From the NCBI RefSeq assembly GCF_000169175.1, contig NZ_AAWS01000006.1, positions 7,192 through 71,191 on the forward strand: a stretch of 64,000 nt of DNA, read 5' to 3'. Below, piece after piece: positions 31,945-62,833 of the stretch; within the stretch, counting starts at the first letter, position 1, and each line of letters opens with the position of its first letter. The stretch is from Microscilla marina ATCC 23134. Its GTDB lineage: Bacteria > Bacteroidota > Bacteroidia > Cytophagales > Microscillaceae. The notes beneath the pieces were generated by a model. The model saw nothing but the letters and a program-made list of their open reading frames with translations. It was not told the origin of the DNA and made no database searches. A program made the position numbers and the translations under genes.

Positions 31945-32398
31945 TGTTTTTTAATACTTATAAAACCACAAAAATACACCTTTGCTCAAAAAAAAAACAC
32001 GCAAGGCTTCTCTTTAGTCATCTTTCAATAAATAATTTGAGCTATTAAAGTGTATCTATTGCCCTCATTCTTCTCAAAAAAAAGCTTCATAACTTCGGCT
32101 ATGCACCGTTTTTTTGCATCGTCTGAGAACAATATATTTTCTTGAATTGGCACCTCTTATTTTTTCCGGATCACTTATCAATTTTATGAAAAAAAATTTC
32201 ATTAATATTTCTTGGCAAATGTGGACGCTAAATATATGATACATTGTATTTTTGGGTAAAGCTTTATAATAGAGACCAGTGGTAAGCGGCAAATCGCAAG
32301 TTGTATATACCTTCTTCTACTTTATACTTGTGTTAGGTCACTTGCTACCTACCTCTTTCAAAATATACTTACTAACAAGTCTAACAATTTCAAAAACA

Positions 32399-33673
32399 AT
32401 GAGCAACGAAAACGACAACGCGACTGACAACAACCTTCGCACGGCAAAACTAATCATGGTGACTGCCAACAACAACAACAAGTATTATGAAATGCAAGAA
32501 AACGGTGATGGCACCTTTACAGTAAGCTATGGCAGGGTAGGTGGACGTGCTACTACCCGAAGCTATTCAATGCGGGAGTGGGACCAGAAGTACCGCGAAA
32601 AAACCCGCAAGGGCTACGCTGATCAAACCCACTTATTTGCCGAAAGCAAAGAGGAAATAAAACTGGCTGACATTGACGATAAGGGAGTAGAAAAGCTTGT
32701 TAATCTATTGACCAAATATGCCAAAAAATCTATTGGCGACAACTATAATGTAACTGCCGACCAGGTAACCCGCAAACAAGTGGATGAGGCGCAAGAGATT
32801 TTGGACAAGATTGTAGGGATGGTAGAAAAGAAAAGTAAGGATATAAAAGTCAAGCTTAAGCTGGAAGATCTTAACCGTAACTTGTTGAATTTGTACCAGA
32901 TTATCCCTCGTAAAATGTCTAATGTAAACGACCATTTGTTTACTGGTGCATCTACTCAAGACGATGTGGAAACCATGGAAAAGAAAATGGCAGAAGAACA
33001 GGCGACACTTGATGTAATGCGTGGACAGGTAGACATTAATGAAAAAACCAAAGTAGCTGCTGAGGAGGAGAACACCAACGAAATAAACTTGTTGGAGGCA
33101 ATGGGGCTGGAAATGGCTACGGTGACCGATGAGGCGGTAATTAGTAAAATCAAGGACTTGATGCAAGACGAAGCGCATAAGTTCCACAAGGCATTTGAGG
33201 TAACTAATATCAAGACGCAGAATTGGTACGACGACTTTAAAAAGACAGCTAAAGATCAGAAAACTGAGCTTTTTTGGCACGGGAGCCGTAACGAAAACTG
33301 GATGTCCATTCTGGAAAACGGTCTGGTGCTACGCCCCGCCAATGCGGTAATCACCGGAAAAATGTTTGGGTACGGTTTGTATTTTGCTGATAAGTTTCGT
33401 AAATCACTGAACTACACCTCTTTGCGTGGTTCTTACTGGACAGGAGGCACGGCAAAAGATGGTTTTCTTGCCTTATACGAGGTGCACGTAGGCAACCAAT
33501 ACCACCTCAAAAAACACCAATCGTGGTGTTATGAATTGAGCGAGAAAAACCTCAAGAAAAAAGGGGATTATGATTCTCTGTTTGCCGAAGGCGGCGCCGA
33601 TTTACGCAACAATGAGTACATCATTTATAATCACTCGCAGTGTACGGTCAAGTACTTGGTACAGGTGAAGTAG
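32399..33673 (+). CDS. Poly/mono-ADP-ribose polymerase homolog (WGR domain, PARP helical regulatory domain and PARP catalytic domain). The start is probably MSNENDN at 32399.
   Basis: WGR: YYEMQENGDGTFTVSYGRVGGRATTRSY. Catalytic: LFWHGSRNENWMSILENGLVLRP...TGKMFGYGLYFADKFRKSLNYT...LYEVHVGNQYHLK...NEYIIYNHSQCTVKYLVQVK. This aligns to the PARP1 catalytic core with the H-Y-E triad preserved. Confidence 0.8.
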   Translation: MSNENDNATDNNLRTAKLIMVTANNNNKYYEMQENGDGTFTVSYGRVGGRATTRSYSMREWDQKYREKTRKGYADQTHLFAESKEEIKLADIDDKGVEKLVNLLTKYAKKSIGDNYNVTADQVTRKQVDEAQEILDKIVGMVEKKSKDIKVKLKLEDLNRNLLNLYQIIPRKMSNVNDHLFTGASTQDDVETMEKKMAEEQATLDVMRGQVDINEKTKVAAEEENTNEINLLEAMGLEMATVTDEAVISKIKDLMQDEAHKFHKAFEVTNIKTQNWYDDFKKTAKDQKTELFWHGSRNENWMSILENGLVLRPANAVITGKMFGYGLYFADKFRKSLNYTSLRGSYWTGGTAKDGFLALYEVHVGNQYHLKKHQSWCYELSEKNLKKKGDYDSLFAEGGADLRNNEYIIYNHSQCTVKYLVQVK

Positions 33674-33979: not shown

Positions 33980-34236
33980 ATACACCCTGTTCCATAGGCA
34001 ACTAATGACCATAAGTAACAGTAAGGACTTAAGACACTATCAAACACTCTACAAAATAGGCTGAAGTCCTCTATTTAGATATTTTTAAAATAAGTGTTGA
34101 AATTTAAAAGCTGACATAGCATATCCTCTGATTTGTAGTATAAGTAGAGTGATTTTGTACTGATAAAAGAACACTCAAAGCCCCACAGGACAGGCATACA
34201 CCTGACTGTGGGATGTTCCCAAAATTTTGCGCCAAA

Positions 34237-35673
34237 ATGAATTATAAGGAAGTTGTAGACAATAATCCCCTTCTTGAGACTGTGGCTAAGGTAGCCCAGC
34301 AAACCGGGCTTGAAACTTATGTGGTAGGTGGCTTTGTACGCGATTTGATACTTAAGCGCCCCTCGAAAGACATAGATATTGTATGTGTAGGCAGTGGTAT
34401 AGAACTGGCAAAGGCGGTAGCTGAAGAGCTACCTGATAAACCACAAGTAAATTATTTTAAGAATTTTGGTACGGCTCAAATCAAGGCTCAAGACTGGGAA
34501 CTGGAGTTTGTAGGAGCTCGGAAAGAGTCTTATCAACGCAATTCGCGCAAGCCAATTGTGGAAAATGGCACCCTCGAAGATGACCAAAACCGCCGAGATT
34601 TCACCATCAATGCTTTGGCCATTAGCCTACAGGCAAATAATTATGGTGAAGTGATAGACCCCTTTGGGGGAATAAAGCATCTGGAGCAGCGGGTAATTAA
34701 AACTCCGCTTGACCCAGACATTACTTTTTCTGATGATCCATTGCGAATGATGCGTGCCATGCGCTTTGCTACTCAGCTAAAGTTTGACATAGAACCCAAT
34801 ACGTTTGAGTCTATTCAAAAAAACAAAGAGCGTATCAAGATTGTATCGCAAGAGCGCATTACGGTAGAGCTCAATAAAATTGTAGCAGCCTCGGTGCCCT
34901 CTTATGGGTTTAAATTGTTGTTTTATGCTGAGTTGCTACACTTGATCTTTCCTGAAATGGTAGATCTGCATGGGGTCGATGTAGTAGAGGGCAAAGCACA
35001 CAAAGACAATTTTTTCCATACACTACAGGTACTTGACAATGTGGCCAAGGTATCGGACGACTTGTGGCTACGTTGGTCAGCCATTATGCATGACATTGCC
35101 AAACCTGTTACCAAACGCTTTGACAAACGGGCGGGATGGACTTTTCACGGGCATGAAGACAAAGGAGCTAAAATGGTTCCGCATATTTTTCGTAGGCTTA
35201 AGTTGCCCATGAACGACCGCATGCGTTTTGTGCAAAAATTAGTACGCTTGCACCTGCGCCCCATTCCATTGTTCCGCGACCACATCACCGATTCAGCCAT
35301 TCGCCGCTTATTGTTTGATGCTGGCGATGATATAGACGCGCTGATGATGCTTTGCCGGGCAGATATTACGTCTAAAAACCACGAGAAAGTAAAGCGTTTT
35401 CTCAAAAACTTTGATGTGGTAGAACGCAAGCTCAAAGAAATAGAAGAAAAAGACCGAATGCGCAACTTTCAACCGGTGATTACGGGTGAGGTAATTATGG
35501 AAGCGTTTGACCTGAAACCCAGCCGTGAGGTAGGACTGATAAAAACGGCAGTAAGAGAAGCGGTACTGGACGGTGAAATTCGTAATGAAATAGAAGAAGC
35601 TTTTGCTTTTATGGTAAAAAAAGGCAAAGAATATGGGCTTACCCCAGTAAAAACCATCAAAGAGTTGTCTTAG
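34237..35673 (+). CDS. cca: CCA tRNA nucleotidyltransferase / poly(A) polymerase family with an HD domain.
   Basis: [19 protein letters not shown] nucleotidyltransferase motif, [10 protein letters not shown], and a downstream HD domain (HDIAKP). Confidence 0.85.
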
Positions 35674-36002: not shown

Positions 36003-37238
36003 CTATTTATACCGCACAGGGTTATGCGCCCATCCTCCCCACGCCGACTCATCCCAAATATATTTTGCTTTCATTGCTTGAGCTTTTTCATACATAACCG
36101 CTGCTTTTTGGTCATGGCTATTGCCACGCATCAGCAGTGCCAAAGCGTAGCTTTCGTACAAAGCAATAGAATGAGGCAAATACTCAAATAGTTTTTGGTA
36201 GCAAATCTCTATGACCTCTCTGGGCAAACAATAGGTAATATCTATCTCAAGGGCTGCCAATAGGTCTATTGGGTCTTGAGATAGTAAGGTTTCTTTGATC
36301 AGCTCAGGTAAATAGGCAGCTCGTTGGGGGCGTTGGATGTATTGGCGAACAAAGCTTTCGAACCGATGACTGGTACGAAAAACCAAGGCTTGTGGGTGAT
36401 GTTCTAGTGACTCTTTATCTGGTATATCAGCTGTTTGCCCTGTCAAGTATTGGGCTTTCCTTTTTTCGAGGTTCCACCACCACGAGACGTGGGCTTGCTG
36501 CCCTTCAGCATAAGTTCTGATAATGGGTGAAGTAAGCAAACCGTGACAATAATCACTAGGGGTAGTGGTTTCGTCTAACAGTGTTTTGAGGCGTTGTTGG
36601 AGTTGCCAACTATAGGTAAAGTCAATATTGGCTCTGATAATTTCGCTTACCCTGAGTACTTGGTCTAAGTTGGTTTTGATACGTAAATGCATATCATATT
36701 GGCTATAAGCTTTTGCGTAGTTGGTTTGGTGCTGGTTGTCCCACAGGCGCAAGGCATACACTGCTTGGGTAGCTGCATTACGATAATTGTAATATTGAGG
36801 CTCGATGTATTGATTGATATAGGTTTGCAAAGTAGGAATCAAGCTTTCGTCGTTGTATAAAAACAAAGCAGATAGCCAAGCAGGTGAAAAAAAGATATGA
36901 TCGTTGGCGGTCAAAATAGCCTCTTTGACTTGGGGCAAAAACTGGCGCTTTTTTAATAAACCTGCCACCCAACATGCTGTTAGTAAAGCTTCGCGTTGGT
37001 AGGGTGCCCAAAGGTTTGTAGTTACATCTTGCTTACTAAATTTAAACAACGCCTCTATGTGTTCGTCGGGAATGGCAGCAAGTACGTAGCGGGTTCGCAG
37101 GATGAAATAGTCCCAATGTTGGTCGTAATGACTAAATACTTTGAGCCCAAATAAATGCCTTCGGAAGAATACAGAAAGATATGCATTAATCAAATCAGGA
37201 GGATAATATCGCAAGTTATCGCTGTTAGGGAGAAACAT
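36003..37238 (-). CDS. Hypothetical protein (411 aa), Trp/Tyr-rich, with no recognisable domain.
   Basis: Long ATG ORF between cca and the macrodomain gene. A degraded partial copy of its interior occurs at 38555-38750. Confidence 0.5.
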   Translation of the reverse strand: MFLPNSDNLRYYPPDLINAYLSVFFRRHLFGLKVFSHYDQHWDYFILRTRYVLAAIPDEHIEALFKFSKQDVTTNLWAPYQREALLTACWVAGLLKKRQFLPQVKEAILTANDHIFFSPAWLSALFLYNDESLIPTLQTYINQYIEPQYYNYRNAATQAVYALRLWDNQHQTNYAKAYSQYDMHLRIKTNLDQVLRVSEIIRANIDFTYSWQLQQRLKTLLDETTTPSDYCHGLLTSPIIRTYAEGQQAHVSWWWNLEKRKAQYLTGQTADIPDKESLEHHPQALVFRTSHRFESFVRQYIQRPQRAAYLPELIKETLLSQDPIDLLAALEIDITYCLPREVIEICYQKLFEYLPHSIALYESYALALLMRGNSHDQKAAVMYEKAQAMKAKYIWDESAWGGWAHNPVRYK

Positions 37239-37345
37239 ATTTTTACGCTAAAATTTAAACTTATTTTCTTTCCAATCGAGGCTTGAAGCCTCCATTTCTT
37301 TGCTGTAAATTGTAGCAAAAAAAACAGACCTAATTTATTAAAAAT

Positions 37346-37798
37346 ATGGCAATAACATTTAAAAAAGGGGGCTCTTTATTTGACGAAGATGTAGTGGCTA
37401 TAGTAAACCCAGTAAACACTGTGGGTGTGATGGGCAAAGGGCTGGCACTAGAGTTTAAAAAACGCTTTCCGACAAACTACGATTTATATCGGGCTGCTTG
37501 TAAAAACGACGAGGTACATACAGGACAAATGTTTGTAACCCATACGGACAACACTCCTGGCATCATTGTTAACTTTCCGACCAAACAACATTGGCGGGGA
37601 AAATCAAAATTAGCTTACGTGAGTGAGGGGCTAGATGATTTGGCAAAAGTGATAGCCGCCGAAAAGATGGCTTCTATTGCTTTGCCTCCTCTGGGCTGTG
37701 GGTATGGTGGCTTGGCCTGGACTGAGGTAAAGCGCTTGATTGAAGAAAAGCTGTCAGAAGTGGCCAATGATGTAGAGGTAATTGTCTTTGAACCTTAA
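37346..37798 (+). CDS. Standalone macrodomain protein of the DarG/TARG1-like clade (putative ADP-ribosyl hydrolase).
   Basis: IVNPVNTVGVMGKGLALEFKKRFP, NFPTKQHWRGKSKLAYV and PPLGCGYGGLAW match the DarG/TARG1 macrodomain signature (VNTVNCVGVMGKGIALQFK, NFPTK.HWR, PPLG.G.GGL). Confidence 0.75.
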   Translation: MAITFKKGGSLFDEDVVAIVNPVNTVGVMGKGLALEFKKRFPTNYDLYRAACKNDEVHTGQMFVTHTDNTPGIIVNFPTKQHWRGKSKLAYVSEGLDDLAKVIAAEKMASIALPPLGCGYGGLAWTEVKRLIEEKLSEVANDVEVIVFEP

Positions 37799-38133
37799 GA
37801 TACATTCAACTTTTTACGCTCTAAATATTTAATAGCTTCGTAAATCTTCCACTCTTATTTCTGGGCTTACAATCACCCCTGATTGTGCGGCAAAAAATAA
37901 TTATCCAGATATTAACACTTGAGTTTTTAGTGGCTTTTATCGAATTTTGCCTTGTAATTTTTCTCCAAAGTTATACTATGCCCTTAAGGTGAGTTGTCAT
38001 AAACTTTGAGCCTTAAGGGTTTTTTATTATAGTAAAAGCATAATAGTTATCGTGTGAAAACACAATTAAAACAATATTTTAATTATACTATAATTAACAC
38101 TAATTTTATAATAAAATTATTTTAAATATTTAT

Positions 38134-38415
38134 ATGAATACAGTAGAACAGATTATAGAAAAGATCAAGCAGATACGAAAAGAAAGAAAAATTAAACAAG
38201 AGGCTTTGGCGAAAGCTATAGGAGTAACTACTGGGCAATACTCGCACTATGAAACCCTCAAAACAGAAATCTCTTTGAGTAATTTTTTAAAAATACTTGC
38301 TTACTTTGAAATGTCAGTGAAAGACTTTTTTATGCTTGACTCCGCTACCATTTCCAAAGAAAACCTGGACGAGGTAATCCAAAGGCTAGAGTCCTTGCGA
38401 GATGGTAACGAATAG
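38134..38415 (+). CDS. XRE-family helix-turn-helix transcriptional regulator.
   Basis: IKQEALAKAIGVTTGQYSHYE is an HTH_3-like motif. It is preceded by a very AT-rich region. Confidence 0.6.
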   Translation: MNTVEQIIEKIKQIRKERKIKQEALAKAIGVTTGQYSHYETLKTEISLSNFLKILAYFEMSVKDFFMLDSATISKENLDEVIQRLESLRDGNE

Positions 38416-38440
38416 ATTTTAATGACATTTTTATATTTCA

Positions 38441-38750
38441 AGGATAACCTGTTTGATCATTCGTCGCTTGCCACTATTCCCTACCCCCTTCCTCATCCAA
38501 CACTTTCAGAAAAGTAGCAGGTTCGGGGCGTACCCGATAGTTGTCGATCGGGTCGGCTTCTTTGATTTGGGGCAAAAACTGGCGTTTTTTAATAACCCCG
38601 CCACCCAACATGCAGTAAACAATGCTTCGCGTATGTGATGCACTCAAGGGCTTGTGTTACTTTGCTTGCTAAATTTAAACAAAGCTTCTATGTGTTCGTC
38701 GGAAATAACAGAAGGCAGGAAACGGGTTTGAAGGACAAAGTCTTTCCATT
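38441..38750 (-). pseudogene. Mosaic of two gene fragments. 38478-38549 is a copy of the 3' end of gene 44361..45233. 38555-38750 is a degraded copy of an internal part of gene 36003..37238.
   Basis: Direct sequence similarity of 38478-38549 to 44378-44449, and of 38555-38750 to 36915-37105. There are no intact ORFs. Confidence 0.6.
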
Positions 38751-38858
38751 CATAAGTTGAAATGTAAACTAAACTAAACAAAAAATGGCTCCTAATAAAA
38801 AAGTAAGGAGCATAGAATAAATCTACACTCCTTACTTTTTGTTTACTGTCAATTGATA

Positions 38859-39188
38859 TTAGACAAAAATACTTTCTGATACTTCTTGCTTTTCAACTCT
38901 AAGCGCGATTGGTATGGCCAGTTTAATCCCATTTGCATCAAGTTGTCGCAACACCTCCATATTCACCTGGCTTGTGCCCAGGCTAACTTTATCATATTCT
39001 GACCCTACAGTTAGTTTATCCTCTGGCTTCCAAACTGCTATAGCAAACCAATAGTCAATATCGTGCGAATACTCTCCCAGCTTGTAAGTTGTCCAGGTTT
39101 TCTTCTCTGTTACATCGAATTTTTCAGGAATTTCTCTTAATAATTTCATTGCTATCTCAATCTGTTCGTGGGTAGTATCAAACCGCAA
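38859..39188 (-). CDS. C-terminal domain of the MscS-family channel. It lies in-frame downstream of the TGA at 39219-39221. The gene is either interrupted or read through.
   Basis: …DIDYWFAIAVWKPEDKL…VNMEVLRQLDANGIKLAIP aligns with the MscS C-terminal alpha/beta domain (INFVVRVWSNSGD…VLERIKREFDAAGISFPYP). It is the same frame as 39219..42797. Confidence 0.55.
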   Translation of the reverse strand: MRFDTTHEQIEIAMKLLREIPEKFDVTEKKTWTTYKLGEYSHDIDYWFAIAVWKPEDKLTVGSEYDKVSLGTSQVNMEVLRQLDANGIKLAIPIALRVEKQEVSESIFV

Positions 39189-39218
39189 ACGAATGATATT
39201 ATTAACAAAATAACGTGG

Positions 39219-42200
39219 TCAGGAGTCTTTATTTTTTATAGTGCTATTGATAAACACCCTGTTAGAAATGACATTTTTTTCGCCATAAAAATTGTTAATC
39301 ACAGAACTTCGTAAACCTATTTTATGTACCCAGCCATCTATGCCTGCCACTACTACTCTTTCTCCTACTTTAAAAGGTTTGGTAATAAGTAATGTAAGCC
39401 CTCCTAACAAATCGGCAAGAATATCTTTTAGCGCAAATGCCAAAGCAAAACCACCAATGCCTAAACCAGCAAGAATGGCTCCTGCATTAAAGCCTAATGT
39501 TTCGATAGAAAGTGTGATTGCAAATAGCCAAATCACTACAATAGTTAAAGCCTTTAGGAAGTAAACCATAGGCAAAAAATCTGCTTTTTTCAACCATTCC
39601 AGCTCATCTACTTTTTCTTCTCCCTCTCGTTTTCGTTTTTTAAAGAATCGGGAAAGAAGAACAATTGTCCTTGATTTTTTTTGTGTGAGCAATGCCTCTG
39701 TATACTTGCCCTCTTTGGCTTTTGTAGTGGTTGAGATAACACGAGCTACCATAGATTTGACTATTTTTATTAGGAACCAGGCGATCAAAACGATAAAAGA
39801 CAGTTTGATAATCATGTACAATAAAACTTTGTACCTTAATCGGTTTCTTGTGGATCTCAATGCCCCAATTTTTCCCTTCAAAAAAATCAGCCTAGCCAAA
39901 CTCGTTTGAGGTCTTTCTTCTTTATCCATCTTATCCAGCTCAGATTTGGGGTGACCAATAAGCTCAGCGATGCTCTTTTTAAGTACCACATTTTTGGCTT
40001 CCAATGCGCTAATAATGTCGGCATAAATATCTATTTCTTTCTCTATACCTCCAGGTGTTTGCCTTTCCTTAAAAAGAGTGATCCATTTTTTCGTCGCTGC
40101 AATTTGCACATGGTAATCAAACAATAAATCAGTGCTAATGCTAATGATAGAGTCCTGGCTACTTTGAGCAACTGGAGCTAACAAAGGAATATTTCGTCCT
40201 GTTTTTACCTGAAAAGCATTGATTAATTCATTGGCTTTTTCAGGTACCAGCCTTATTTTAATTTTTATCCATTCTTCTTCATAAGCAAGCTCAAGTTGTT
40301 CTAAATGTTTATTAAGAAATGTAAGTAAGACAGGAATAGAATCTTTTTCTGCGTATTCAAGCTTTGTTAATTTTTCTAATTTGTATATTTGGGTTTGCAG
40401 TATCCTTTGTTGTTGTTCTAACTGAATAAGTTCTACATAATTTGATGTGAGTATTTTAGAGTAGTTTTGAGTTTCAGAAGAGTTAATAAACCCAAGAAAA
40501 AATTCTTCAATGCCATTATCCGAATTCAGACGGTTAACTGCCAATTGTTCACTTACTTCTAAGGCAGTACCTTTCAGGGCTACTTTTTTATTGTCAAATT
40601 CCTGTTGTAATTCCTCTAATTGTTTATGAATGCTTCCTCGTTCACCAGTATTTTTTTGCATCTTGATAAACTGAGCCTGTAATTCGTTTTTCTCTTCTGT
40701 CTGACTCAGCCTCTTTAGCTCCCGCTGAATGCTTAGTTCCACCCCAAACAACTCATGGGTAAGCGATTCGAAATTGCTTATTCGTTCATATTTCAATGCT
40801 TCATTTACTTTAGCAGGTACTTCTTTGCGTTTTATTTTAGCCTGACTATACAGCTTTTTTATTTGTCCTGCATAAAGATTTTGTTGCAATAAAATATCGG
40901 TTATTTTTTCCCGCTTTACAAGTAACTGCCTGAGATACATCTGTAAAGAGTCCAATGATGTTTTCAGAGAATCTTTCAGACTTTTGCGTTTTTGAATAGT
41001 TTCTACATTTTGTGCCAGTAAGTTTTGATACTTTTCTCCTGCAATGTTTTTAAACAAACTTTTGCTTTTTGCCTTTTCTGCTTCGGGCTTCACCAACAAG
41101 CTATCCACTTTTTGTTCTTTTTTAGTAAATATCTGGACTTGTTTTCTTTGAGCTCGTTTGTGTATAAGAGCATATAGTTGAGAACGAATGCCATATTTAT
41201 CCTCCTGTGACTCTCTTTTAATAATTCTGAACAAAGGTCCTTTCAATATGTTCAATTCTCTTTTTATAGTTTTGGCAGTATCTTCTGCTCCTTTATATCT
41301 TTTGTAATAACTTTCTAGTCTCCGTTGTCTCATTGCCAAGCTATCTGTCAGTGTAGTAAAAGTATTGAGTAGCTTTTTTTTGCCAATGTTTTCAAGCTTT
41401 GCTTTCCATTTTTCTACTTTCATTAATGACTTGGCTGTTCTCTCAAGGCTATTTTTTTTGCTGGCAATCTCATCATAGTTCGCCATTAGCTTTTTTATTT
41501 CTTTAGCATTCAGTTCAATTTGTTTTTTTGCATTCTCGCTCAAAATTATTACTTCTGCATTTTGCTTAGTCAGGCTTTCTTCTTCTGCAATAATGGCTTT
41601 ATACCAGTTTGCTGACAGCATTGATTCAGGTTTTACTTCTCCTTTCTCTTCAAGGTTCTTAATGAGTTTTGCAATAAAAATCATCTTTGACAGATGCTCG
41701 CCAATTACTGCAGCTTCAGCAGTAAAAACTTCCTTACTAGCAATAAGCGCCTTCAACTGACTTTGCAATTCATTGGTGTTTTTTATTTGAACAGAGTCAT
41801 ACTTCAGCAAACTATTCAATGCCTGTATTGTCTTTTTTGTATCTTTCGACTCTTCTATACGCTTTGTTTTGGGAGGTTTTTTCAGCTCTATTTTTTTGTA
41901 CCTTACTTCTGCCTCTTTTCCCAAGGCCATTACTTTATTGTAGGCTACCAGGTAAGAACTCTTTATCCAATTTTTTTCTTCAGATAGTTCGGCAAAAGTT
42001 CTCAATAGTTTTTTAGGAGTCATTGCGGCATACTTGTTCTGTAATGCTACATTTTTTTGCTCGTTTGCCTGTTTTTCTTTGGCAGTAAACAGTTGTAACG
42101 CTACCTGTGCTATAGCTTTTTTATTTTCTGCAATATCGCTCCCAAGGCTTATAATCTCTTTTTTTACTACTTTATTGATTCCTTCAAATCGTTTTTCGAT

Positions 42201-42797
42201 TCCAGATAGCTTTTGTTGCTTTGCCTTAATATTTTCTTGCGACAATGATGCGGGCAATTTGGATGCTATTAGTGTACCATCATTTATTCGTAATTTTACC
42301 TCTAATAAATAAGGGGTTAGCAATATAAGATCATTCTTAAACCTATTGCTCGAAAACAGCACCTCATCTACTTGAGTAAGCAGGGTTTCTAAAGCTGTTT
42401 GTTTGCGTTCCAACAACAGTGCTTTTTGCTTGTAAGCATTTAAAAGGCGAGCAATATGTTTGGCTTTAAGCACCGAAATTTCAAGGGGAGTCAATTCTTT
42501 GGCAGGTTTTCGAAAGGTAGAATCAGGCAGGCGAAAATTGCTCAGTTGTCTGTCACTTTCCTGAATAATTTTCTCATCGCTATAAAATTTCCGTAGCTCT
42601 TTTCGATAACTAAACTGAGAAGTACTAAACATTTTATCTGCTTGCCTAAGCAATGCCTCATTACTCAAATTGTGTAAGTTACCAGTGGTTTGTGCCCAGG
42701 TACTATTGTAAACAAACAACAATGCTATACAAAATAGTTGATGAATAAATACTCTTTTTATTATAATTACTTGATAATTTGAAAAAAGTCTTTTCAT
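39219..42797 (-). CDS. Large MscS-family mechanosensitive channel (MscK/KefA-like). It has a roughly 950-aa N-terminal coiled-coil/periplasmic region and is terminated by an in-frame TGA before its conserved C-terminal domain.
   Basis: MscS TM3/beta domain: GAILAGLGIGGFALAFALKDILADLLGGLTLLITKPFKVGERVVVAGIDGWV. N-terminal signal/TM, then a long K/E-rich coiled coil. AT-rich codon usage. Confidence 0.65.
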   Translation of the reverse strand: MKRLFSNYQVIIIKRVFIHQLFCIALLFVYNSTWAQTTGNLHNLSNEALLRQADKMFSTSQFSYRKELRKFYSDEKIIQESDRQLSNFRLPDSTFRKPAKELTPLEISVLKAKHIARLLNAYKQKALLLERKQTALETLLTQVDEVLFSSNRFKNDLILLTPYLLEVKLRINDGTLIASKLPASLSQENIKAKQQKLSGIEKRFEGINKVVKKEIISLGSDIAENKKAIAQVALQLFTAKEKQANEQKNVALQNKYAAMTPKKLLRTFAELSEEKNWIKSSYLVAYNKVMALGKEAEVRYKKIELKKPPKTKRIEESKDTKKTIQALNSLLKYDSVQIKNTNELQSQLKALIASKEVFTAEAAVIGEHLSKMIFIAKLIKNLEEKGEVKPESMLSANWYKAIIAEEESLTKQNAEVIILSENAKKQIELNAKEIKKLMANYDEIASKKNSLERTAKSLMKVEKWKAKLENIGKKKLLNTFTTLTDSLAMRQRRLESYYKRYKGAEDTAKTIKRELNILKGPLFRIIKRESQEDKYGIRSQLYALIHKRAQRKQVQIFTKKEQKVDSLLVKPEAEKAKSKSLFKNIAGEKYQNLLAQNVETIQKRKSLKDSLKTSLDSLQMYLRQLLVKREKITDILLQQNLYAGQIKKLYSQAKIKRKEVPAKVNEALKYERISNFESLTHELFGVELSIQRELKRLSQTEEKNELQAQFIKMQKNTGERGSIHKQLEELQQEFDNKKVALKGTALEVSEQLAVNRLNSDNGIEEFFLGFINSSETQNYSKILTSNYVELIQLEQQQRILQTQIYKLEKLTKLEYAEKDSIPVLLTFLNKHLEQLELAYEEEWIKIKIRLVPEKANELINAFQVKTGRNIPLLAPVAQSSQDSIISISTDLLFDYHVQIAATKKWITLFKERQTPGGIEKEIDIYADIISALEAKNVVLKKSIAELIGHPKSELDKMDKEERPQTSLARLIFLKGKIGALRSTRNRLRYKVLLYMIIKLSFIVLIAWFLIKIVKSMVARVISTTTKAKEGKYTEALLTQKKSRTIVLLSRFFKKRKREGEEKVDELEWLKKADFLPMVYFLKALTIVVIWLFAITLSIETLGFNAGAILAGLGIGGFALAFALKDILADLLGGLTLLITKPFKVGERVVVAGIDGWVHKIGLRSSVINNFYGEKNVISNRVFINSTIKNKDS

Positions 42798-43325
42798 AAC
42801 TGATCAAAGGGTGAATAATTGTTTAATAATGATTAATTACATTTCAATGGTATAGTGATTTGTCAGCTTTATCTAAGCCTCATTTTTTTTCAAGTATCTT
42901 AGTTTGGGCTGCCCTTATTGTTGGTTGATATCAAGATTTTAGATAAACATGGATCAGGGTTCCTTGAGAGGTAGACGTAGGGAAGTTTTTCCGTTTAATT
43001 TCAGCATAGGGAATATTTTCAGTATTTCTGCAAAATCGGTTATATTGTGTGCCACTAGGTGGGTTACTATTGCCAATCTTTCAGATAGTGTGCATGCTCG
43101 CCCAAATAAATGCTTATACTATGATTGGCAAGGCTTGCCATTTTCTTGCAAACAGCCAGTACCTCTTTATTTTCCTGCCTACACTCAAGTTTCCCAACGA
43201 AAACCACCCAGTTGATGTAATTTTTCAGAAAAGAGAATTTATAACCTATTTCAATCTTTTAATGATGTCCATAGGTTAACCATCGTCCTGCTCTCAAAAT
43301 ATTTTTTGACTAGCCGCACTAACAA

Positions 43326-44021
43326 TCAGTCCCTCTTGTAATATAAAAAAGCTTCATGCTTGACTATATCACCACTCATCAACCTTCTGTGATTATATAT
43401 TTTACTTTCACAAAGAGACATTTCCTGTTCGAGCCAGCCCAATATGCGGCTTCTCCTGTAGTCATCTTTATCTGTCAACAGGTTAAATACTATGTAAGCG
43501 TTTTCATTTAAAAGGTTTACATAGCTTTTAAGGTCTTCAAGCTCTATATGATTTGCTCCTCCACTAATTGTAATACAATTAAAATCATACTTTGTAAGGT
43601 TTTTATTTTTTATTACATTTTTTACAATAAAAGTATCATCATAAATTTCAGGGTAATCACGATTAAGTGCATCGATGGCTTCTGGCAGGATATCGACTCC
43701 TACCAAAGATTTAATATCCACATTGCTGTTTTCTTTTAATGCTTTGCCCATTAAACCTGAACCACAGGCAAGATCAAGTACATTAAGTTCTTTATGAGTT
43801 TTCGCAGCATACTTTAGCAGCAAACAAGACAATTCTTCATACGCTTTATAATCAAGTAAATCGCAATATAATCTACTATACAATTTTGGGTATGAATAAA
43901 TACTGGCATAATCCCAGGTTTTAAACACTTTTTCTGCGCCATTGGCAAAATCTACTTTAAAGGTTTCGCTTCCTTGGCTTGTGCCTTGTAAGGGAGTAAT
44001 TTTAATAATTGATTCAGTCAT
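43326..44021 (-). CDS. Class I SAM-dependent methyltransferase.
   Basis: VLDLACGSGLMG (motif I) and VDILPEAI (motif II). 231 aa. Confidence 0.6.
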   Translation of the reverse strand: MTESIIKITPLQGTSQGSETFKVDFANGAEKVFKTWDYASIYSYPKLYSRLYCDLLDYKAYEELSCLLLKYAAKTHKELNVLDLACGSGLMGKALKENSNVDIKSLVGVDILPEAIDALNRDYPEIYDDTFIVKNVIKNKNLTKYDFNCITISGGANHIELEDLKSYVNLLNENAYIVFNLLTDKDDYRRSRILGWLEQEMSLCESKIYNHRRLMSGDIVKHEAFLYYKRD

Positions 44022-44360
44022 TTTTTGAAGTTATTTGCATGAAAGTACCATCATTTACAGTCAGTAAAATCATTTAAACCCAGCCTCATAAAATATTTTA
44101 TAGAACCCTTAAAGGTTTCAAATATCTGTTTTTAAACAGGGCATATTCTATGTAATGAAAAATACATCAACTGGTCATTTTATTACATCAGCAAGTAAAT
44201 TACTTTAATTTACTAAAAAAACCAGTATAAAAACACATATTGAATTAAAATCACGTAATTATACCTATTAAAACACAAAAAAATACTGAGCGTATTTGGG
44301 ATTTATGAAGAAGACAGAGGAAATGCTTTATTAGGAGGAAAAAAAGGAGGTTTCACACCA

Positions 44361-45233
44361 TCAGGAACGATGTTCAACACCCTCTTCCTCATCCAACACT
44401 TTCAGAAAAGTAGCAGGTTCGGGGCGCACCCGATAGTTATCGGTCAGGTCGGCAAAAATGATCTTTCCTTCAGAATTGGTTATAATCACGGTGGGTAAAA
44501 CTGTGTTGGAATCGTAACCCAATATTTCAAAGCCTTTAGGAATGCCGTTTTCTGAGATAATTTCTAATTGGCGAGCTGCCCGGCTTTTTACATCTACCAG
44601 AAAGTGAAAAGGAACTTTCATTTTTTCTGCCAATTGGCGTGAATACCCGTGAGGTTGGGGGCTTACCAAGGCTACCTTTACCCCTCTTTGGTTGAGTTCT
44701 TTGTATTGTTGGGCTACTTCTTTGATTTGTGCCATACACAATGGGCACCAATTGCCCCGATAAAATAGCCATAGAGTGGGGTGTCCGTCAAACTCTTTGC
44801 TTTGTACTTGTTCGCCTGCCTCGTTTTCTAACACAAAACTAGGCAATGGTTTGCCCACCGCAAGCAACTCTTTATTGCGTAAGGTAAAACGTGAATACCA
44901 ATAAATATAAATGAGCCAACCCAAAGTGTTGCTTACTGCAAATACTATGGCTGCATAAACTGGGGGAGTTTGGGTGGTGTAAGCCGTTACTATCGCCCAC
45001 CCAGTGCTTACCAACATCAAGGCTGTGTATTTGGGCATAGCAGCTTTGGTACGGGCAAAAGGACGAAAAATGAATAACCCCGCAAACATAAGGGCTATAG
45101 CCCACCCGCCCAAGGCTACCCCCAACCAAGGCAAACTAAAATCTAACAAAAGCTGACGAACAGCATAAATACCTATGACCATTCCATAAACAGGAAAAGC
45201 AGTAATAAATATCGATTTGGCTACATTTACCAT
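44361..45233 (-). CDS. Membrane-anchored thioredoxin-fold (redoxin/AhpC-TSA-like) protein.
   Basis: About 130 aa of N-terminal TM helices, then a C-terminal GNWCPLCMAQ (CxxC) motif in a thioredoxin-like region. Confidence 0.6.
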   Translation of the reverse strand: MVNVAKSIFITAFPVYGMVIGIYAVRQLLLDFSLPWLGVALGGWAIALMFAGLFIFRPFARTKAAMPKYTALMLVSTGWAIVTAYTTQTPPVYAAIVFAVSNTLGWLIYIYWYSRFTLRNKELLAVGKPLPSFVLENEAGEQVQSKEFDGHPTLWLFYRGNWCPLCMAQIKEVAQQYKELNQRGVKVALVSPQPHGYSRQLAEKMKVPFHFLVDVKSRAARQLEIISENGIPKGFEILGYDSNTVLPTVIITNSEGKIIFADLTDNYRVRPEPATFLKVLDEEEGVEHRS

Positions 45234-45445
45234 GACTTGATGAATGTGTTTTATATTTTACAACTTACAAAGCATTCTCGGTTTATTGTGAAGCCTGCAT
45301 TTAAATTTTTAAGTTTACAACCGCTTTTTTTTACAAAAAAGTTCTGTCATACAATAACGAGTTTGTTTAAAGTCAACCAAAAAGACATGCTTTAAAACCC
45401 AAAGCTGTTCGCTAAACAAACTCCAAGACTTTGAAAATACTTAAT

Positions 45446-46588
45446 ATGAAGAAATTAGTTTTTACTTTGTTATTTCTGGGCACTTATGCCTTACTTTCTG
45501 CTCAACCTTCTGCCTATAAAGCCCAGCCGTTTGCAGATGATGTTCCATTGACTACTCCGTCTATGCTGGATGCTGACTACATAGCCCGTGTAATGGCAGC
45601 ACTACCGCTGCCTGAAGCTGCTCCCGAAAACATAAAGCAGTTGTCCAAAGTTGCCTCGGTTCAAAATCATTATAAGGAGTTTACTATTGCCTGGCAAAAA
45701 TTAGAGAGTAAAAAACTGTCACGCTTACGCAAATGGCGGGACAGTGAAATTACTGACTTGCATAAAAAGCAAACCAATTTGTTCTACCCTTTTGCTGGTC
45801 CCGATTTTCTGAATGCTTACCTGCTTTTTCCTACCTGCGACAATTATTTGTTGTTTGGACTAGAGAAAATGGGCACATTGCCTACAATGGCGCAGCTGAG
45901 GGGTAATTATTTGTTTCGCTTACGCAAATCGTTGTCTATTTTGATGAAGCGCAATTACTTCATTACCCGCGACATGATCAACAACCTTAATAGCAATGTA
46001 AAAGGAGTGTTGCCTTTGATCGCAGTATTTATGGCGCGCACCGACAATAAGATATTGAGTATTCAGAAGGTGTATGTACAAAAAAACGGCAAACCTAAAT
46101 TTGTGGCTTTTAACGACAATAAGTGGCATCCAGGGATCAAAGGGGTAACAATTGAGTTTAAAAATAAGAACCGTGATTTGCCTCAACGCATGTATTACTT
46201 TGGGACCAACTTTGTAAATACCGCCATGTATACCAAAAAAAACCTGGTTAATTTTATTACTAACTTTAAAAACAAGATGACTTTTACCAAGTCGGCTTCT
46301 TACTTGTTGCACGGTCACAACTTTAGTATTATTCGTAATATTATCCTCAATCAGACATCGGCTTCGGTACAAGACGATACTGGAGTGCCCTACCGCTATT
46401 TTAAAAACAGTTGGAGTGTAAAACTATACGGTAAGTATGCCCGCCCGGTGCGTGACTTTAACTATGGGTTTCAGACTGACTTAAACAGGCTATTTAAGAC
46501 AGATAAAACCGTTAAGCCCATTGACTTTACTTTTGGTTATCATTGGTGGACAGATAAATCAAGTATTTTGGTTTTCAGGAAAAAATAG
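45446..46588 (+). CDS. Hypothetical secreted protein (signal peptide MKKLVFTLLFLGTYALLSAQ).
   Basis: The ORF has a signal peptide and no recognised domain. Confidence 0.5.
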   Translation: MKKLVFTLLFLGTYALLSAQPSAYKAQPFADDVPLTTPSMLDADYIARVMAALPLPEAAPENIKQLSKVASVQNHYKEFTIAWQKLESKKLSRLRKWRDSEITDLHKKQTNLFYPFAGPDFLNAYLLFPTCDNYLLFGLEKMGTLPTMAQLRGNYLFRLRKSLSILMKRNYFITRDMINNLNSNVKGVLPLIAVFMARTDNKILSIQKVYVQKNGKPKFVAFNDNKWHPGIKGVTIEFKNKNRDLPQRMYYFGTNFVNTAMYTKKNLVNFITNFKNKMTFTKSASYLLHGHNFSIIRNIILNQTSASVQDDTGVPYRYFKNSWSVKLYGKYARPVRDFNYGFQTDLNRLFKTDKTVKPIDFTFGYHWWTDKSSILVFRKK

Positions 46589-46794
46589 CTATTCCAGAGG
46601 GCAGTGATTCAGGCAAAAACACTGTCCTTTTTGGGTCATTTGGCGGGTTCGGTTTACTTTCTTTTGCTTTATATTCAAAACCACTCTTCAGAGCGTTTAC
46701 TTTCAGACAAATAAGCTCACCTTCAGTTGCACAAATCAATAAAAGGAATATATTTGTAAATGAGATGGTTATAACTAAAAAATGAACTATTGAT

Positions 46795-48081
46795 ATGGTT
46801 GAAGATAACCCTACAAACCCCGATTCAGGAGACAAAAAACCTACCCACGATCCGTTTGATATGCTCAAAGGAGACACTCCTACCGGCAGCACTCCACCTC
46901 CAGAAAAAGAAGAAAATAAAGAGGAAGACAACACAGGAAACAAACAAGAAACTTCTTCCACAACGGGTAGCGACCCGTTTGATATGGTAGAAAAACACCC
47001 TACCTCCGGAACAACACCCTCTACCCCTACTGTCAATACTGGTGGCGACCCGTTTGATATGGTAGAAAAGCAACCTACTTCTGGTACCACTCCCCCCATT
47101 ACCAATACTGCTGACCCGCTCAACACAGCAGGGCAATCTACGGGTTCTACATCTCAGCCTGACTTGCCTAAACCATCAGAAGACCCTTTAACTGGGCAAT
47201 CGGGTACTGCGGGTTCTGCGTCTCAACCTAATTTGCCACAAACTCCCCTGACGGGGCAGTCAGGTACAACTACTGGTTCTACCTCTCAACCTGATTTGTC
47301 TTCTACACCACAAAACCTGTCTACTCCTCCCCCTCCTAATACATCAATACCTACACCTACTGCTACCTCTGTACCCAACCCGCAGCCCATACCCAATATT
47401 GCTACGCCACCACCCAATGCCCACAAAGCAGCAGAGCGGGAAGCGTATCAGTCTAAAATAGATATGAATGCAGTATTGGCTGCTGCCAATAAGGTAAACC
47501 AAATGCCTAAACTACAGGCCACTTCTATGGAAAAATTAGATGAAGCACTATTTACCAAACGGCATAGAACCAAAGTAGGCCCTGAAGAAAAAGAGGAGGT
47601 AGAACAAAAGCTTCAGTATTTGGTAAATAAGATTAAAAAAGACTTGGCTTTTTATAACAATAAAGAGAAAAAGTCGGGTAAATGGACATTGATATTCAGT
47701 GTATTGTCTTCTTTATTGGCGGCTTCTGTAACCGTATTACTAGGTTTGAATATTACAGACTTTATGCGTAAACATAATTTTGACTGGTATATCAATACTA
47801 TAGCCTTGATTATTAGTGCATTTATTTCGGTAATTGGAGTTTTGCAAAACTTTACAGACTCCAAACCTTTATGGGTTAAATATACCGATACCTCCAACAA
47901 GTATCAACAGTTGCTAGACAATATTGAGTATATGCAACTGGCAGGTAATTATATCACACTAGATGATGTAAATCAGATAAAACTTGCCTATAACCGAATA
48001 AAAGATGGTACAAACAACTATATCATTCAGGTAAGAAGCCAAGATGATGGTACTGGAAACTCGTCACTTCTCAGGTCGTAA
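46795..48081 (+). CDS. Repeat protein. The N-terminal Pro/Thr/Ser-rich low-complexity region carries three DPFDM(V/L)EK repeats. The C-terminal region is two-TM plus helical and may be SLATT/DUF4231-like.
   Basis: DPFDMLKGD, DPFDMVEKHPTSGTTP and DPFDMVEKQPTSGTTPP repeats. The C-terminus has WTLIFSVLSSLLAASVTVLLGL and YINTIALIISAFISVIGVL TM helices followed by an amphipathic tail. Confidence 0.5.
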   Translation: MVEDNPTNPDSGDKKPTHDPFDMLKGDTPTGSTPPPEKEENKEEDNTGNKQETSSTTGSDPFDMVEKHPTSGTTPSTPTVNTGGDPFDMVEKQPTSGTTPPITNTADPLNTAGQSTGSTSQPDLPKPSEDPLTGQSGTAGSASQPNLPQTPLTGQSGTTTGSTSQPDLSSTPQNLSTPPPPNTSIPTPTATSVPNPQPIPNIATPPPNAHKAAEREAYQSKIDMNAVLAAANKVNQMPKLQATSMEKLDEALFTKRHRTKVGPEEKEEVEQKLQYLVNKIKKDLAFYNNKEKKSGKWTLIFSVLSSLLAASVTVLLGLNITDFMRKHNFDWYINTIALIISAFISVIGVLQNFTDSKPLWVKYTDTSNKYQQLLDNIEYMQLAGNYITLDDVNQIKLAYNRIKDGTNNYIIQVRSQDDGTGNSSLLRS

Positions 48082-48149
48082 CTCCTCTTATGGTGATTAC
48101 AAAAAGGCTGTCTCATCATAGATTTTAGGAAAATGTTATTCTAAATACT

Positions 48150-48184
48150 ATTCATACCTGCCAGGTTTTTGAAGCCTGGCAGGT
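48150..48184. terminator. Bidirectional terminator hairpin between convergent genes.
   Basis: Perfect 13-bp stem catacctgccagg / cctggcaggtatg with a 9-nt loop (tttttgaag). Confidence 0.6.
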
Positions 48185-48212
48185 ATGAAATTTCTTAAAA
48201 ACCGTTTTTACT

Positions 48213-49022
48213 TTACTTTTGCCAATGTTGCTGTATAATCTCCAGCATTTGTGAATGTACTTCTCCACTGGCTACAATTTCTCCCTTGAACACACTATCG
48301 TCCCCTCCACTAAAGTTGGTCACGGTTCCGCCTGCTTCTTGTACAAGACAAGCACCAGCGGCTACATCCCAAGGCTTTAGATTGTACTCAAAAAAACCTT
48401 CAAAACGCCCACAAGCTACATACGCCAGGTCTACTGCTGCTGACCCCATACGACGCAAGCCATGGGTATTTTGCATAAACCCATTGAGTATCTCCAGGTA
48501 ATTGCGCATTTGGTCAAAGTTATAATAAGGAAAACCTGTAGCAAGCAAGCTATCGCTTAGGTCTTGGGTGCTTGATACCCTAATTTTGGCATTGTCCATA
48601 TAGGCTCCTCCATCTTTCCAGGCATAAAAACACTCATTTCGGTTTATTTCATAGACTACCCCTGTTATCACTTCGGTGTTTTGCATAAGTGCTATACTGA
48701 TAGCAAAAATTGGCAATCCGTGCAAAAAGTTAGTGGTACCATCCAACGGATCTACTACCCAATGGTATTCTTTACCCGACAATTGGTGGTTGGCTGAGTC
48801 CTCTTCAGATACAAACCCAGCTTCGGGTAGTACCTTGGTCAATGCTTTGATAAGCATTTCTTCTGATCGTTTGTCTACATAAGACACCAAGTCGTTTTTA
48901 CCTTTGTACTCAATCATTGAGCGGTCAAAGTTTCTCAGTTCAGTTCTTATAAAATATCCTACATCTTTGGTGATTTGAATCACTTGCTCAACCAATGGTT
49001 GTAAGTCTATTGTACTACTCAT
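48213..49022 (-). CDS. suhB: Inositol monophosphatase family protein.
   Basis: WVVDPLDGTTNFLHGLP is the IMPase motif, and WDVAAG lies in the C-terminus. 269 aa. Confidence 0.85.
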   Translation of the reverse strand: MSSTIDLQPLVEQVIQITKDVGYFIRTELRNFDRSMIEYKGKNDLVSYVDKRSEEMLIKALTKVLPEAGFVSEEDSANHQLSGKEYHWVVDPLDGTTNFLHGLPIFAISIALMQNTEVITGVVYEINRNECFYAWKDGGAYMDNAKIRVSSTQDLSDSLLATGFPYYNFDQMRNYLEILNGFMQNTHGLRRMGSAAVDLAYVACGRFEGFFEYNLKPWDVAAGACLVQEAGGTVTNFSGGDDSVFKGEIVASGEVHSQMLEIIQQHWQK

Positions 49023-49041
49023 GTTTTAAATGTTTATTTTT

Positions 49042-50685
49042 TTAAGTGAAGCTTCCAGTAGTTCCTTTAGTAATTTTCTTTACCAACATGGTGAGTATTA
49101 AACCTATTGCCATAAATGCTGACAAACGTCCTAAATAATCGCCATGACGGGCATACATAGTTATTTTGGTATGAGACTTTATACCTTGCTTAAGCACTGC
49201 TTTTTTACCATAATCAGTTTGAGCTATTGCCTCTCCAAATTGATTGATTACTCCTGAGGTACCAGTATTGGCACAAAATACCACATCACGGCGTGTCTCA
49301 ATGGCACGCAAACGGGTGTAGGCAAAATGTCGGTGATGCCCATCAGTGTCTCCCCACCAGCCATCATTGGTGATCACAGCCAGTGCATTGGCTCCGTTGT
49401 GAATGTAACGACGGGTAAAGTCTCCATGAATAGATTCAAAACAAATCAAAGGAGCTATTTTCATCTTTTTTTCACCTTTGTCTTTAGCAAGTAAAGTAAA
49501 CACTTCGCGGGCTGGTTGGGTACCATACGAGCCACTGGTACCACCAAAGTCTATCAACCAATCACCCAATATACCCAATACTTGAGGATAAGGTAAAGTT
49601 TCTACCCCAGGCACTAACTTGGATTTATGATAGAACCCGGCAGAAGGCGGATGCTCTTGTAAGAAAACAGCCGTGTTGAACACCTCATAGTACCTTCCTG
49701 TTTTGGGGTGTACACGGGCACTAGTAGTAGGTTTTACTCTGCCATAAAATCGCGAAGTAGTGGCTCCAGTGATCATTGCTAGATGGGGGTATTTTTTCAG
49801 GAAAGTTTGGGCTTGCCTAAATACTGCATACTGGCTAAGGGAAGCTTCATTGTATTGTTCATCGAAAGCGGTTTCGGGCAATAATAACAAACGGGTATTG
49901 GCACTTAAGTAAGGTTGGGCCTGCGCTAAAAAACGCTGCATTTGTTGGGGGTAAGGAGTAAAATTGGAGCCTTCGGCAAATTTTTGGGTATAAGGATCTA
50001 CATTGGGTTGTACAATGACTACCTCAGTTGTGAGGCTGTTTTGTGGAGAATAACCAGCTTTGAGCGCGATGGATGCAATGGCTGGCACTCCCACCAACAA
50101 GGCAAGGTATATAGTATAAGTAATACGGTTATGTTTCAGTTGGCTACTGATGAGTAAGTATGTTAAAATGTTTGCCACAAGCACCCACAAAGAACCACCC
50201 AAAACACCCGTATATTCATACCATTGAATGAGGTAAGGGGCAGTGGCAAATGCATTGCCCAGGGTAAGCCAAGACCACGAAAGTTGCCAGTGCAGGTGCA
50301 AGTACTCAAAACTCAACCAATACAGCGTCAAGGTCAAATAACCATAGTTATTGCCCAATATTTTTCGGGTAATACGATAAGCCAACAGAGGTAGGGTCAT
50401 GAGCAGGGCATTCAAAACAATGGCAACTATTGCCCCCACCACACTTGCCTTTGCCAACCACCAGGTAACGGCAATGTTCCACCCTAATGTAACTCCCAGA
50501 CAACACAACCAAAAGATGAGGTTTCCTCGTTTTTGGTTCTCAATATGTGCCTCAACCATTAAAACCGGGGCAAACCCCACGCATAAAAACAATGGGTGTA
50601 GTTGCCACCCTAACCACAGGCTTATGATACTTGCCAGTACTAAACTGATACAATATTTGAATGAAATTTTTGGAGTTTCGCGCAT
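49042..50685 (-). CDS. lnt: Apolipoprotein N-acyltransferase.
   Basis: About 7 N-terminal TM helices, then a CN-hydrolase domain (LLLLPETAF…ICFES…). 547 aa, typical of Lnt. Confidence 0.7.
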   Translation of the reverse strand: MRETPKISFKYCISLVLASIISLWLGWQLHPLFLCVGFAPVLMVEAHIENQKRGNLIFWLCCLGVTLGWNIAVTWWLAKASVVGAIVAIVLNALLMTLPLLAYRITRKILGNNYGYLTLTLYWLSFEYLHLHWQLSWSWLTLGNAFATAPYLIQWYEYTGVLGGSLWVLVANILTYLLISSQLKHNRITYTIYLALLVGVPAIASIALKAGYSPQNSLTTEVVIVQPNVDPYTQKFAEGSNFTPYPQQMQRFLAQAQPYLSANTRLLLLPETAFDEQYNEASLSQYAVFRQAQTFLKKYPHLAMITGATTSRFYGRVKPTTSARVHPKTGRYYEVFNTAVFLQEHPPSAGFYHKSKLVPGVETLPYPQVLGILGDWLIDFGGTSGSYGTQPAREVFTLLAKDKGEKKMKIAPLICFESIHGDFTRRYIHNGANALAVITNDGWWGDTDGHHRHFAYTRLRAIETRRDVVFCANTGTSGVINQFGEAIAQTDYGKKAVLKQGIKSHTKITMYARHGDYLGRLSAFMAIGLILTMLVKKITKGTTGSFT

Positions 50686-50792
50686 GTTTTATTTGCATTA
50701 AAGTAACTTAAGTAGGGCATTTATTACCATACAGATACTCATCTGCAAAGGTACACGTTTTCAAAAGGTTTGGGTAAAAAAGTGGGGTAAAG

Positions 50793-51500: not shown

Positions 51501-51504
51501 TTTT

Positions 51505-52212: not shown

Positions 52213-52213
52213 G

Positions 52214-52921: not shown

Positions 52922-52922
52922 G

Positions 52923-53639: not shown

Positions 53640-53640
53640 T

Positions 53641-62101: not shown

Positions 62102-62107
62102 GTTTGC

Positions 62108-62830: not shown

Positions 62831-62833
62831 TGA

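Follow-up and report, generated by a model that had tools for sequence, protein, structure and literature searches.

The macrodomains of the DarG antitoxins, the toxin-binding partners of the DarT ADP-ribosyltransferases, have been described in DarTG2 systems such as those of T. aquaticus and M. tuberculosis (PDB entries 5m31, 5m3e and 5m3i), in which the macrodomain is followed by a C-terminal DarT-binding domain of about 200 residues, the darT gene lies upstream, and N22 and K80 have been named as the catalytic residues (PMC13309987, PMC9411070). Enzymes that stand alone can also reverse the lesions made by DarT, the precedents being phage AdfM (PMC13309987), AdfN (PMC11825919) and SCO6735 (PMC9411070). 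AdfM of chimalliviruses (gp104 in PhiKZ; PMC13309987) is a free-standing DarG2-type macrodomain that lacks the toxin-binding domain, keeps the Asn and Lys residues and reverses DarT2 lesions enzymatically and in trans. SCO6735-type proteins are chromosomal stand-alone bacterial macrodomains that have no DarT partner and reverse the ADP-ribosylation of thymidine by DarT, and a genome-protector-like role has been proposed for SCO6735 (PMC9411070). Human TARG1 (C6orf130/OARD1; 4j5r and 2eee), of the ALC1/TARG1-like class, is likewise a stand-alone protein of about 150 residues, with a Lys84/Asp125 dyad.

The protein compared with these systems here is encoded on the plus strand of a window of 64 kb (the whole stretch of Microscilla marina DNA that was analysed), where it comes after a PARP gene, cca and a gene for a 411-aa protein, in the order given by the initial annotation. 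It is described in the following as a free-standing DarG2-type macrodomain, for which we favour, with reasonable though limited confidence, a role as a trans-acting ADP-ribosylglycohydrolase, namely a purely enzymatic eraser of ADP-ribose on DNA that, by analogy with AdfM, would serve as an orphan antitoxin or genome protector. The features of the locus are as follows.

37346..37798, plus strand: free-standing DarG2-type macrodomain gene, 150 aa, with the ADP-ribose-binding loops VNPVNTVGVMGKG and PPLGCGYGGL and the putative catalytic residues N21 and K80.
32399..33673, plus strand: WGR-PARP gene with an intact H-Y-E triad (Pfam, orthologue alignment), context only.
34213..35673, plus strand: CCA-adding tRNA nucleotidyltransferase gene (cca), with PolyA_pol head, RNA-binding and HD domains, context only.
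36003..37238, minus strand: gene for the 411-aa protein, which belongs to a rare family and, from its modelled structure, is predicted to be an all-alpha helical repeat, context only.
37239..37345, no strand: intergenic region of 107 bp between the divergent 411-aa and macro genes, conserved in four Microscilla-clade loci.
37299..37319, no strand: conserved palindrome TTTGCTGTAAATTGTAGCAAA in the macro/411-aa intergenic region, present once in the window.
37981..38025, plus strand: possible terminator of the macro transcript, read from the sequence, with a 9-bp stem (CCCTTAAGG ... CCTTAAGGG) and a 21-nt loop followed by TTTTTT; conserved in locus L001.
38134..38415, plus strand: gene for a 93-aa XRE-family HTH protein, absent from orthologous loci, context only.
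38516..38799, minus strand: degenerate copy of part of the 411-aa gene (residues ~24-120), disrupted by a frameshift and an in-frame stop, context only.

The longest open reading frame of the PARP gene starts with a GTG at 32279 and has 464 aa, and its orthologues, of 411-425 aa, align from the ATG at 32399; this ATG is likely the true start (424 aa), and the 40 extra codons at 32279..32398 are probably not translated. The 107-bp intergenic region is presumed to hold a promoter. The possibility that its palindrome is an operator shared with PARP or cca was considered and rejected in view of its single occurrence in the window. The hairpin at 37981..38025 was not called by the terminator scan because its loop is longer than 8 nt.

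The neighbours of the macro gene include cca, PARP, an MscS-like channel and other housekeeping genes, the XRE HTH gene being the sole one nearby with matches to phage families, and its G+C content is like that of these neighbours; since the surroundings are mostly housekeeping and of normal G+C content (0.39-0.45), the site is not an obvious defence island. On the 3' side, the first ~240 nt past the macro stop codon are common to the window and L001, after which the two diverge. The macro and HTH genes are flanked by the intact 411-aa gene and by its pseudogene fragment, which has 54% amino-acid and 79% nucleotide identity to the 411-aa gene and is roughly as far from the gene of M. marina itself as from its orthologue in L001. 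In the Microscilla-clade contigs L002 and L004, the genes that come directly after macro are CDP-OH_P_transf, CTP_transf_1, Glu_synthase, TMEM260, LRR and GerE genes (L002:3955-13704), and M. marina ORFs of matching size and order, likened by these two properties alone, are found inverted at ~53.6-63.4 kb (window 37800..63410). Given these inverted counterparts, the 3' flank reads as a rearrangement junction, which the pseudogene fragment also marks at the level of sequence; repeats shared by the two ends of the inferred inversion were looked for and none was found.

Two further regions of the window may be mentioned. At 50793..55324 there are six ORFs of 235-238 aa, of which one is divergent and the other five follow each other in tandem on the minus strand; the genes of similar size that occupy this position in L002 and L003 have GerE (LuxR-type HTH) domains, the M. 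marina copies being likened to them by size and position. At 11857..14033, on the minus strand, a gene for an AAA_15/AAA_21 (AbiEii/OLD-like) ATPase of 454 aa overlaps a 271-aa ORF that has no Pfam match; a MoxR AAA_3 ATPase and DUF58 lie on one side of the pair, DUF4159 and TldD/PmbA genes on the other, and the two genes may have been inserted, as a defence-type unit, into a Bat/MoxR-like cluster.

The macro ORF opens with an ATG, the strand opposite to it is closed by many stops, and the 150-aa product contains VNPVNTVGVMGKGLALEFKKRFP, NFPTKQHWRGKSKLAYV and PPLGCGYGGLAW, so that the protein and all three motifs are as the initial annotation had quoted them. It belongs to the Macro superfamily, Pfam PF01661 being matched over essentially the whole domain (profile positions 1-117 of 118) with 70.8 bits (cut-off 22; E=1.2e-19), too strong a match to be due to chance. 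The models of DarG score much higher, with 223.1 bits (E=5.6e-66) for NCBIfam antitoxin_DarG NF048014 and 229 bits (E=2.2e-68) for that of PADLOC, in both cases over the N-terminal ~145 of 329-338 model positions only, and it is because just half of the model is matched that the score for NF048014 falls below the equivalog cut-off of 250. Among PDB sequences, the closest are DarG of T. aquaticus (5m31, E=2.8e-40) and of M. tuberculosis (5m3i, E=6e-40), followed at a distance by SCO6735 and Bt_1257 (E~1e-6) and by human TARG1 (E~5e-5). Pairwise identity is 53% and 48% to the two DarG proteins, respectively, and 24% to TARG1, whose sequence was entered by hand in this comparison, with an outcome that agrees with the PDB matches. 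The MacroD-type equivalog model NF001666 yields 30.3 bits against a cut-off of 246. The PDB E-values, the MacroD score and a rough neighbour-joining (NJ) tree all place the protein nearer to DarG than to other macro subtypes and, as far as sequence comparison goes, it is a DarG2-type macrodomain inside the TARG1/ALC1-like class and not one of the MacroD/YmdB type. The assignment to the DarG/TARG1 clade was, thus, right and can be sharpened, and the HMM search, in which a best match to MacroD/YmdB had been named as the outcome that would speak against it, returned the DarG models as the best ones.

The conserved residues lead to the same subtype. The equivalents of N22 and K80 of T. aquaticus DarG are N21 (in IVNPVNTVG) and K80 (in FPTKQHW), the ADP-ribose-binding loops are those of DarG, and the position of Asp125 of TARG1 is occupied by Gly (in GYGGL), as it is in DarG. 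Although TARG1 is of the same class, of similar size and stand-alone architecture, and has the catalytic Lys in common with the M. marina protein (K84 and K80, respectively), it differs in the Lys/Asp dyad, of which only the Lys is present, besides being far less similar overall (E~5e-5 as opposed to 1e-40 for DarG). SCO6735, the chromosomal genome-protector precedent, is a distant relative in which Gln replaces the catalytic Lys and a mobile loop is longer, whereas the M. marina protein keeps the Lys in DarG-like fashion. AdfM, likened to it by architecture and residues, shares the stand-alone DarG2-like macrodomain with both the Asn and the Lys and without a toxin-binding domain; however, AdfM is borne by phages, whereas the M. 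marina gene is chromosomal, is not carried by a phage or other mobile element, lies among housekeeping genes and has the native base composition.

A canonical DarTG2 pair is not what is found at the locus. The protein stops at residue 150, whereas one with the C-terminal DarT-binding domain would have ~340-380 aa, and the position immediately upstream, where darT (PF14487) is found in DarTG2, is taken by the divergent gene of the 411-aa helical protein. A set of 94 macro-centred loci (80 metagenomic, 9 viral and 5 from look-ups) provided the material for a broader search. Full-length DarG proteins (320-400 aa) are encoded at 64 of them; an upstream same-strand ORF was found at 60 of these 64, and 52 of the 60 ORFs fall in one cluster of ~214 aa, an example member of which matches Pfam DarT PF14487 with E=5e-53. 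Neither a local DarT profile built from this cluster nor a profile of the DarG C-terminal domain, derived from the loci that encode full-length DarG, had a match in the six-frame translation of the whole 64 kb, where the best DarT score (E 0.019) was that of a 32-aa scrap only. The earlier statements that no DarT-like toxin gene is adjacent, and that this is not a canonical DarTG pair, are borne out and extend to all 64 kb.

How the stand-alone form relates to the full-length one can be seen from the same loci. Stand-alone macros score 160-195 bits against the M. marina protein and the macro domains of full-length DarG up to 173, and in the rough NJ tree the two forms interleave, with the M. 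marina protein in a small subclade of nearly all stand-alone forms. Because the two forms score alike and interleave, the stand-alone architecture appears to be widespread and to have probably arisen repeatedly. The idea of a separate stand-alone clade, prompted by the top 120 homologues being nearly all stand-alone, was dropped for the same reason, the composition of the top 120 being rather a sampling effect. A recent truncation of a full DarG was also rejected, in that orthologues of 148-150 aa end at the same residue, most of the homologues listed in a search with more than 4000 matches have 147-160 aa, and the profile search in six frames detected no remnant of the DarG C-terminal domain in the window. 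With dN/dS values of 0.08-0.15 against three orthologues, the macro gene is, on sequence grounds, real and under purifying selection.

The contexts of stand-alone DarG-type macros vary, and are often mobile or defence-related. A stand-alone macro is found directly after BREX pglZ-brxL (L146:3515-8474), in a type I R-M operon directly after hsdM-hsdS and before PIN/DUF4411 and HTH-M78 genes (L153:4189-10217), and on a phage contig (L099). Other copies follow a Fic/RhuM gene (L087) or an HTH-M78 gene (L088) or adjoin an ATPase_2 gene (L085), and L115 has a DarT gene with a split DarG. Orphan DarG-type erasers may, thus, ride along with defence islands.

The activity, substrate and biological role of the M. 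marina protein, which we infer from its relatives, can be outlined as follows. By homology, VNPVNTVGVMGKG and PPLGCGYGGL would form the cleft that binds ADP-ribose, and N21 and K80 would serve to hydrolyse the latter off the modified substrate. The most likely substrate would be thymidine-linked ADP-ribose on single-stranded DNA, that is, the lesion made by DarT2-type transferases. With no DarT-binding C-terminal domain in the protein and no cognate DarT nearby, its action would be only enzymatic and in trans, as in AdfM, and would be directed at DNA ADP-ribosylation by transferases whose genes lie at other places in the genome or that come with mobile elements, phages or competitors. Since the related TARG1 is active on O-acetyl-ADP-ribose and on protein Glu/Asp-ADP-ribose as well, the substrate of the M. 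marina protein could be broader or different.

The initial annotation had read the proximity of PARP as a functional partnership, in which the macrodomain would strip the ADP-ribose put on protein or DNA by the WGR-PARP, as the eraser of a local writer/eraser module. The two genes are, indeed, only 3.7 kb apart, in an order common to the window and L001, the H-Y-E triad of the PARP is intact, human TARG1 removes the DNA ADP-ribosylation made by PARP1 (PMC11102865), and TARG1-like or MacroD-like erasers have been proposed for PARP-bearing bacteria (Perina et al. 2014; PMC4245714). However, the neighbourhood is not conserved across lineages. Of 80 loci centred on PARP and taken from reference genomes throughout Bacteroidota (PARP 46-98% identical; about half of the loci, counted by eye, with the full 10 kb on each side), a single one, L005, has by tblastn a macro of the DarG type within 10 kb; L005 is the same contig as L001, from an uncultured Microscilla. 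A MacroD-type macro is found at L017 only. Conversely, PARP, cca or the 411-aa protein was found at none of the 94 macro-centred loci. When all ORFs less than 6 kb from PARP were clustered, neither macro nor PARG nor ARH genes emerged as recurrent neighbours. Furthermore, the loci of the nearest other Microscillaceae, L003, L006, L007 and L008, keep PARP, cca and the 411-aa gene with an LRR gene at the position that the macro has in Microscilla; by sequence comparison, the macro belongs to a block absent from this site in other Microscillaceae.

The organization of the locus also speaks against a module of this kind, PARP and macro being transcribed separately, with cca and a gene of the opposite strand in between, and the palindrome upstream of macro does not recur near PARP. 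In our reading of Table 3 of Perina et al. 2014 (PMC4245714), M. marina has two PARPs, two PARGs, eight ARH3-like proteins, one MacroD-like and one TARG1-like protein, and TARG1-like proteins are absent in three of five PARP-bearing Bacteroidetes. The partnership is, therefore, not supported by the co-occurrence check that had been proposed for it, carried out here at the level of loci; the adjacency is confined to the genus Microscilla, where shared descent best explains it, nothing in the comparison favours a functional link in trans, and we regard an eraser dedicated to the neighbouring PARP as unlikely.

The PARP-centred loci offered some observations of their own. At 64 of the 80 Bacteroidota PARP loci, PARP is followed on its own strand, after 0-150 nt, by a small ORF (~82-125 aa) that has the motif TTTLEVK..LR..GY.A.Q.EVS...NG.FR.Y (set L005-L084, e.g. 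L051:3384-3674, plus strand). Profile searches gave no Pfam or PDB-sequence match for it and did not find it in the window, and its blastp-defined cluster has no member in L005-L012. At some loci (L017, L031) it is the N-terminal part of a protein of ~315 aa, which in L017 also has a WGR domain; there, a MacroD/YmdB-type macro, 56% identical to E. coli YmdB (sequence entered by hand), comes just after this fused protein downstream of PARP (L017:11260-12746). Approximately 20 PARP loci of Spirosomataceae (L056-L079) have a WYL+WCX regulator and pPIWI_RE_Z (PF18155) ORFs near (e.g. L065:1975-3003 and L070:8782-9216), which suggests that in this family PARP forms part of, or adjoins, a defence or DNA-damage island.

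Removal of ADP-ribose from DNA, which we favour for the M. marina protein, has also to be weighed against the processing of a metabolite by a housekeeping macrodomain, such as an O-acetyl-ADP-ribose deacetylase or an ADP-ribose-1''-phosphatase. Homologues are, in fact, annotated as 'Appr-1-p processing' or 'O-acetyl-ADP-ribose deacetylase', TARG1 itself is named 'O-acetyl-ADP-ribose deacetylase 1' in PDB entries, and the flanking genes are housekeeping ones of normal composition. These names are, however, generic labels of the macro family, the MacroD/YmdB-type model stays at 30 bits for a cut-off of 246, the closest characterized relatives are DNA ADP-ribosylglycohydrolases, and DarG2 macrodomains counteract DNA ADP-ribosylation exclusively according to the authors of the AdfM study (PMC13309987). 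A metabolite-processing function appears, on balance, improbable.

The 411-aa neighbour, identical (100%) to an NCBI entry of M. marina, had been described as having no recognizable domain and as possibly part of the same module as the macrodomain. The former statement holds across Pfam, NCBIfam, PADLOC and PHROGs, none of which gave a match. An AlphaFold model built from 38 sequences has a pLDDT of 86 and predicts an all-alpha helical-repeat protein of a rare family, with neither an enzyme nor a toxin fold. The idea that the two divergent genes form a module, in which the helical-repeat protein would target or regulate the macrodomain, or be regulated by it, finds some favour in their head-to-head arrangement around the well-conserved, palindrome-bearing 107 bp in all four Microscilla-clade loci. 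These four genomes are, however, closely related (macro 78-91% identical), so that the arrangement may be mere common descent. The 411-aa gene adjoins cca and PARP in L003, L006, L007 and L008, which have no macro at the site, while macro is found without the 411-aa protein at 94/94 loci; the predicted fold is a non-enzymatic one; and one distant family member is found beside an RlaP nucleotidyltransferase, which echoes the adjacency to cca rather than a link to macro. Since the 411-aa protein follows cca and PARP rather than macro, a common module with the latter is weakly contradicted, and we consider it a doubtful proposition with little chance of being correct.

In Microscillaceae, the 411-aa family invariably adjoins the CCA-adding nucleotidyltransferase. 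The distant member, P0254 (453 aa; L091:1412-3803 and L092), is encoded immediately downstream of RlaP (PF10127), a nucleotidyltransferase of the Pol-beta type, a single case that echoes this arrangement.

A more elaborate proposal, in which the macrodomain would have been recruited beside PARP, cca and the 411-aa gene as an eraser of PARP-made ADP-ribosylation on DNA/RNA ends or bases, with the 411-aa protein and the CCA enzyme perhaps in a nucleic-acid repair module, is quite improbable in our view; if true, it would provide a bacterial counterpart of the human PARP1/TARG1 cycle of DNA ADP-ribosylation. That the gene is the decaying remnant of a former DarTG locus, without present function, as might be imagined for what corresponds to the N-terminal half of DarG next to a rearrangement junction with a pseudogene fragment, is very improbable, given the strong purifying selection, the intact catalytic residues, the lengths recurring in orthologues and in most of the listed stand-alone homologues, and the lack of detectable remnants of DarT or of the C-terminal domain in the 64 kb.

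A trans-acting eraser of DNA ADP-ribosylation, thus, remains the reading we prefer for the M. marina protein. It is already annotated through an identical NCBI entry, 'macro domain-containing protein [Microscilla marina]', and the literature tabulates a 'TARG1-like' gene of M. marina (PMC4245714). Stand-alone DarG2-like macros are already known, and this is one further uncharacterized member in an unremarkable context: one more chromosomal orphan DarG2-type macrodomain for a very large and largely uncharacterized set, which matters little alone. A lesson to be drawn is that nearness to PARP in one genus does not amount to a conserved association. For work on bacterial PARPs, the by-products of the analysis are maybe more useful, namely the small ORF downstream of PARP at 64 of 80 loci and the rare family of helical-repeat proteins that, in Microscillaceae, goes with cca and PARP. 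Of moderate interest, though the M. marina locus is not especially informative in this respect, is the question of what chromosomal stand-alone DarG-type erasers guard against, for which the DarT enzymes of incoming elements, the effectors of competitors and endogenous transferases are the candidates.
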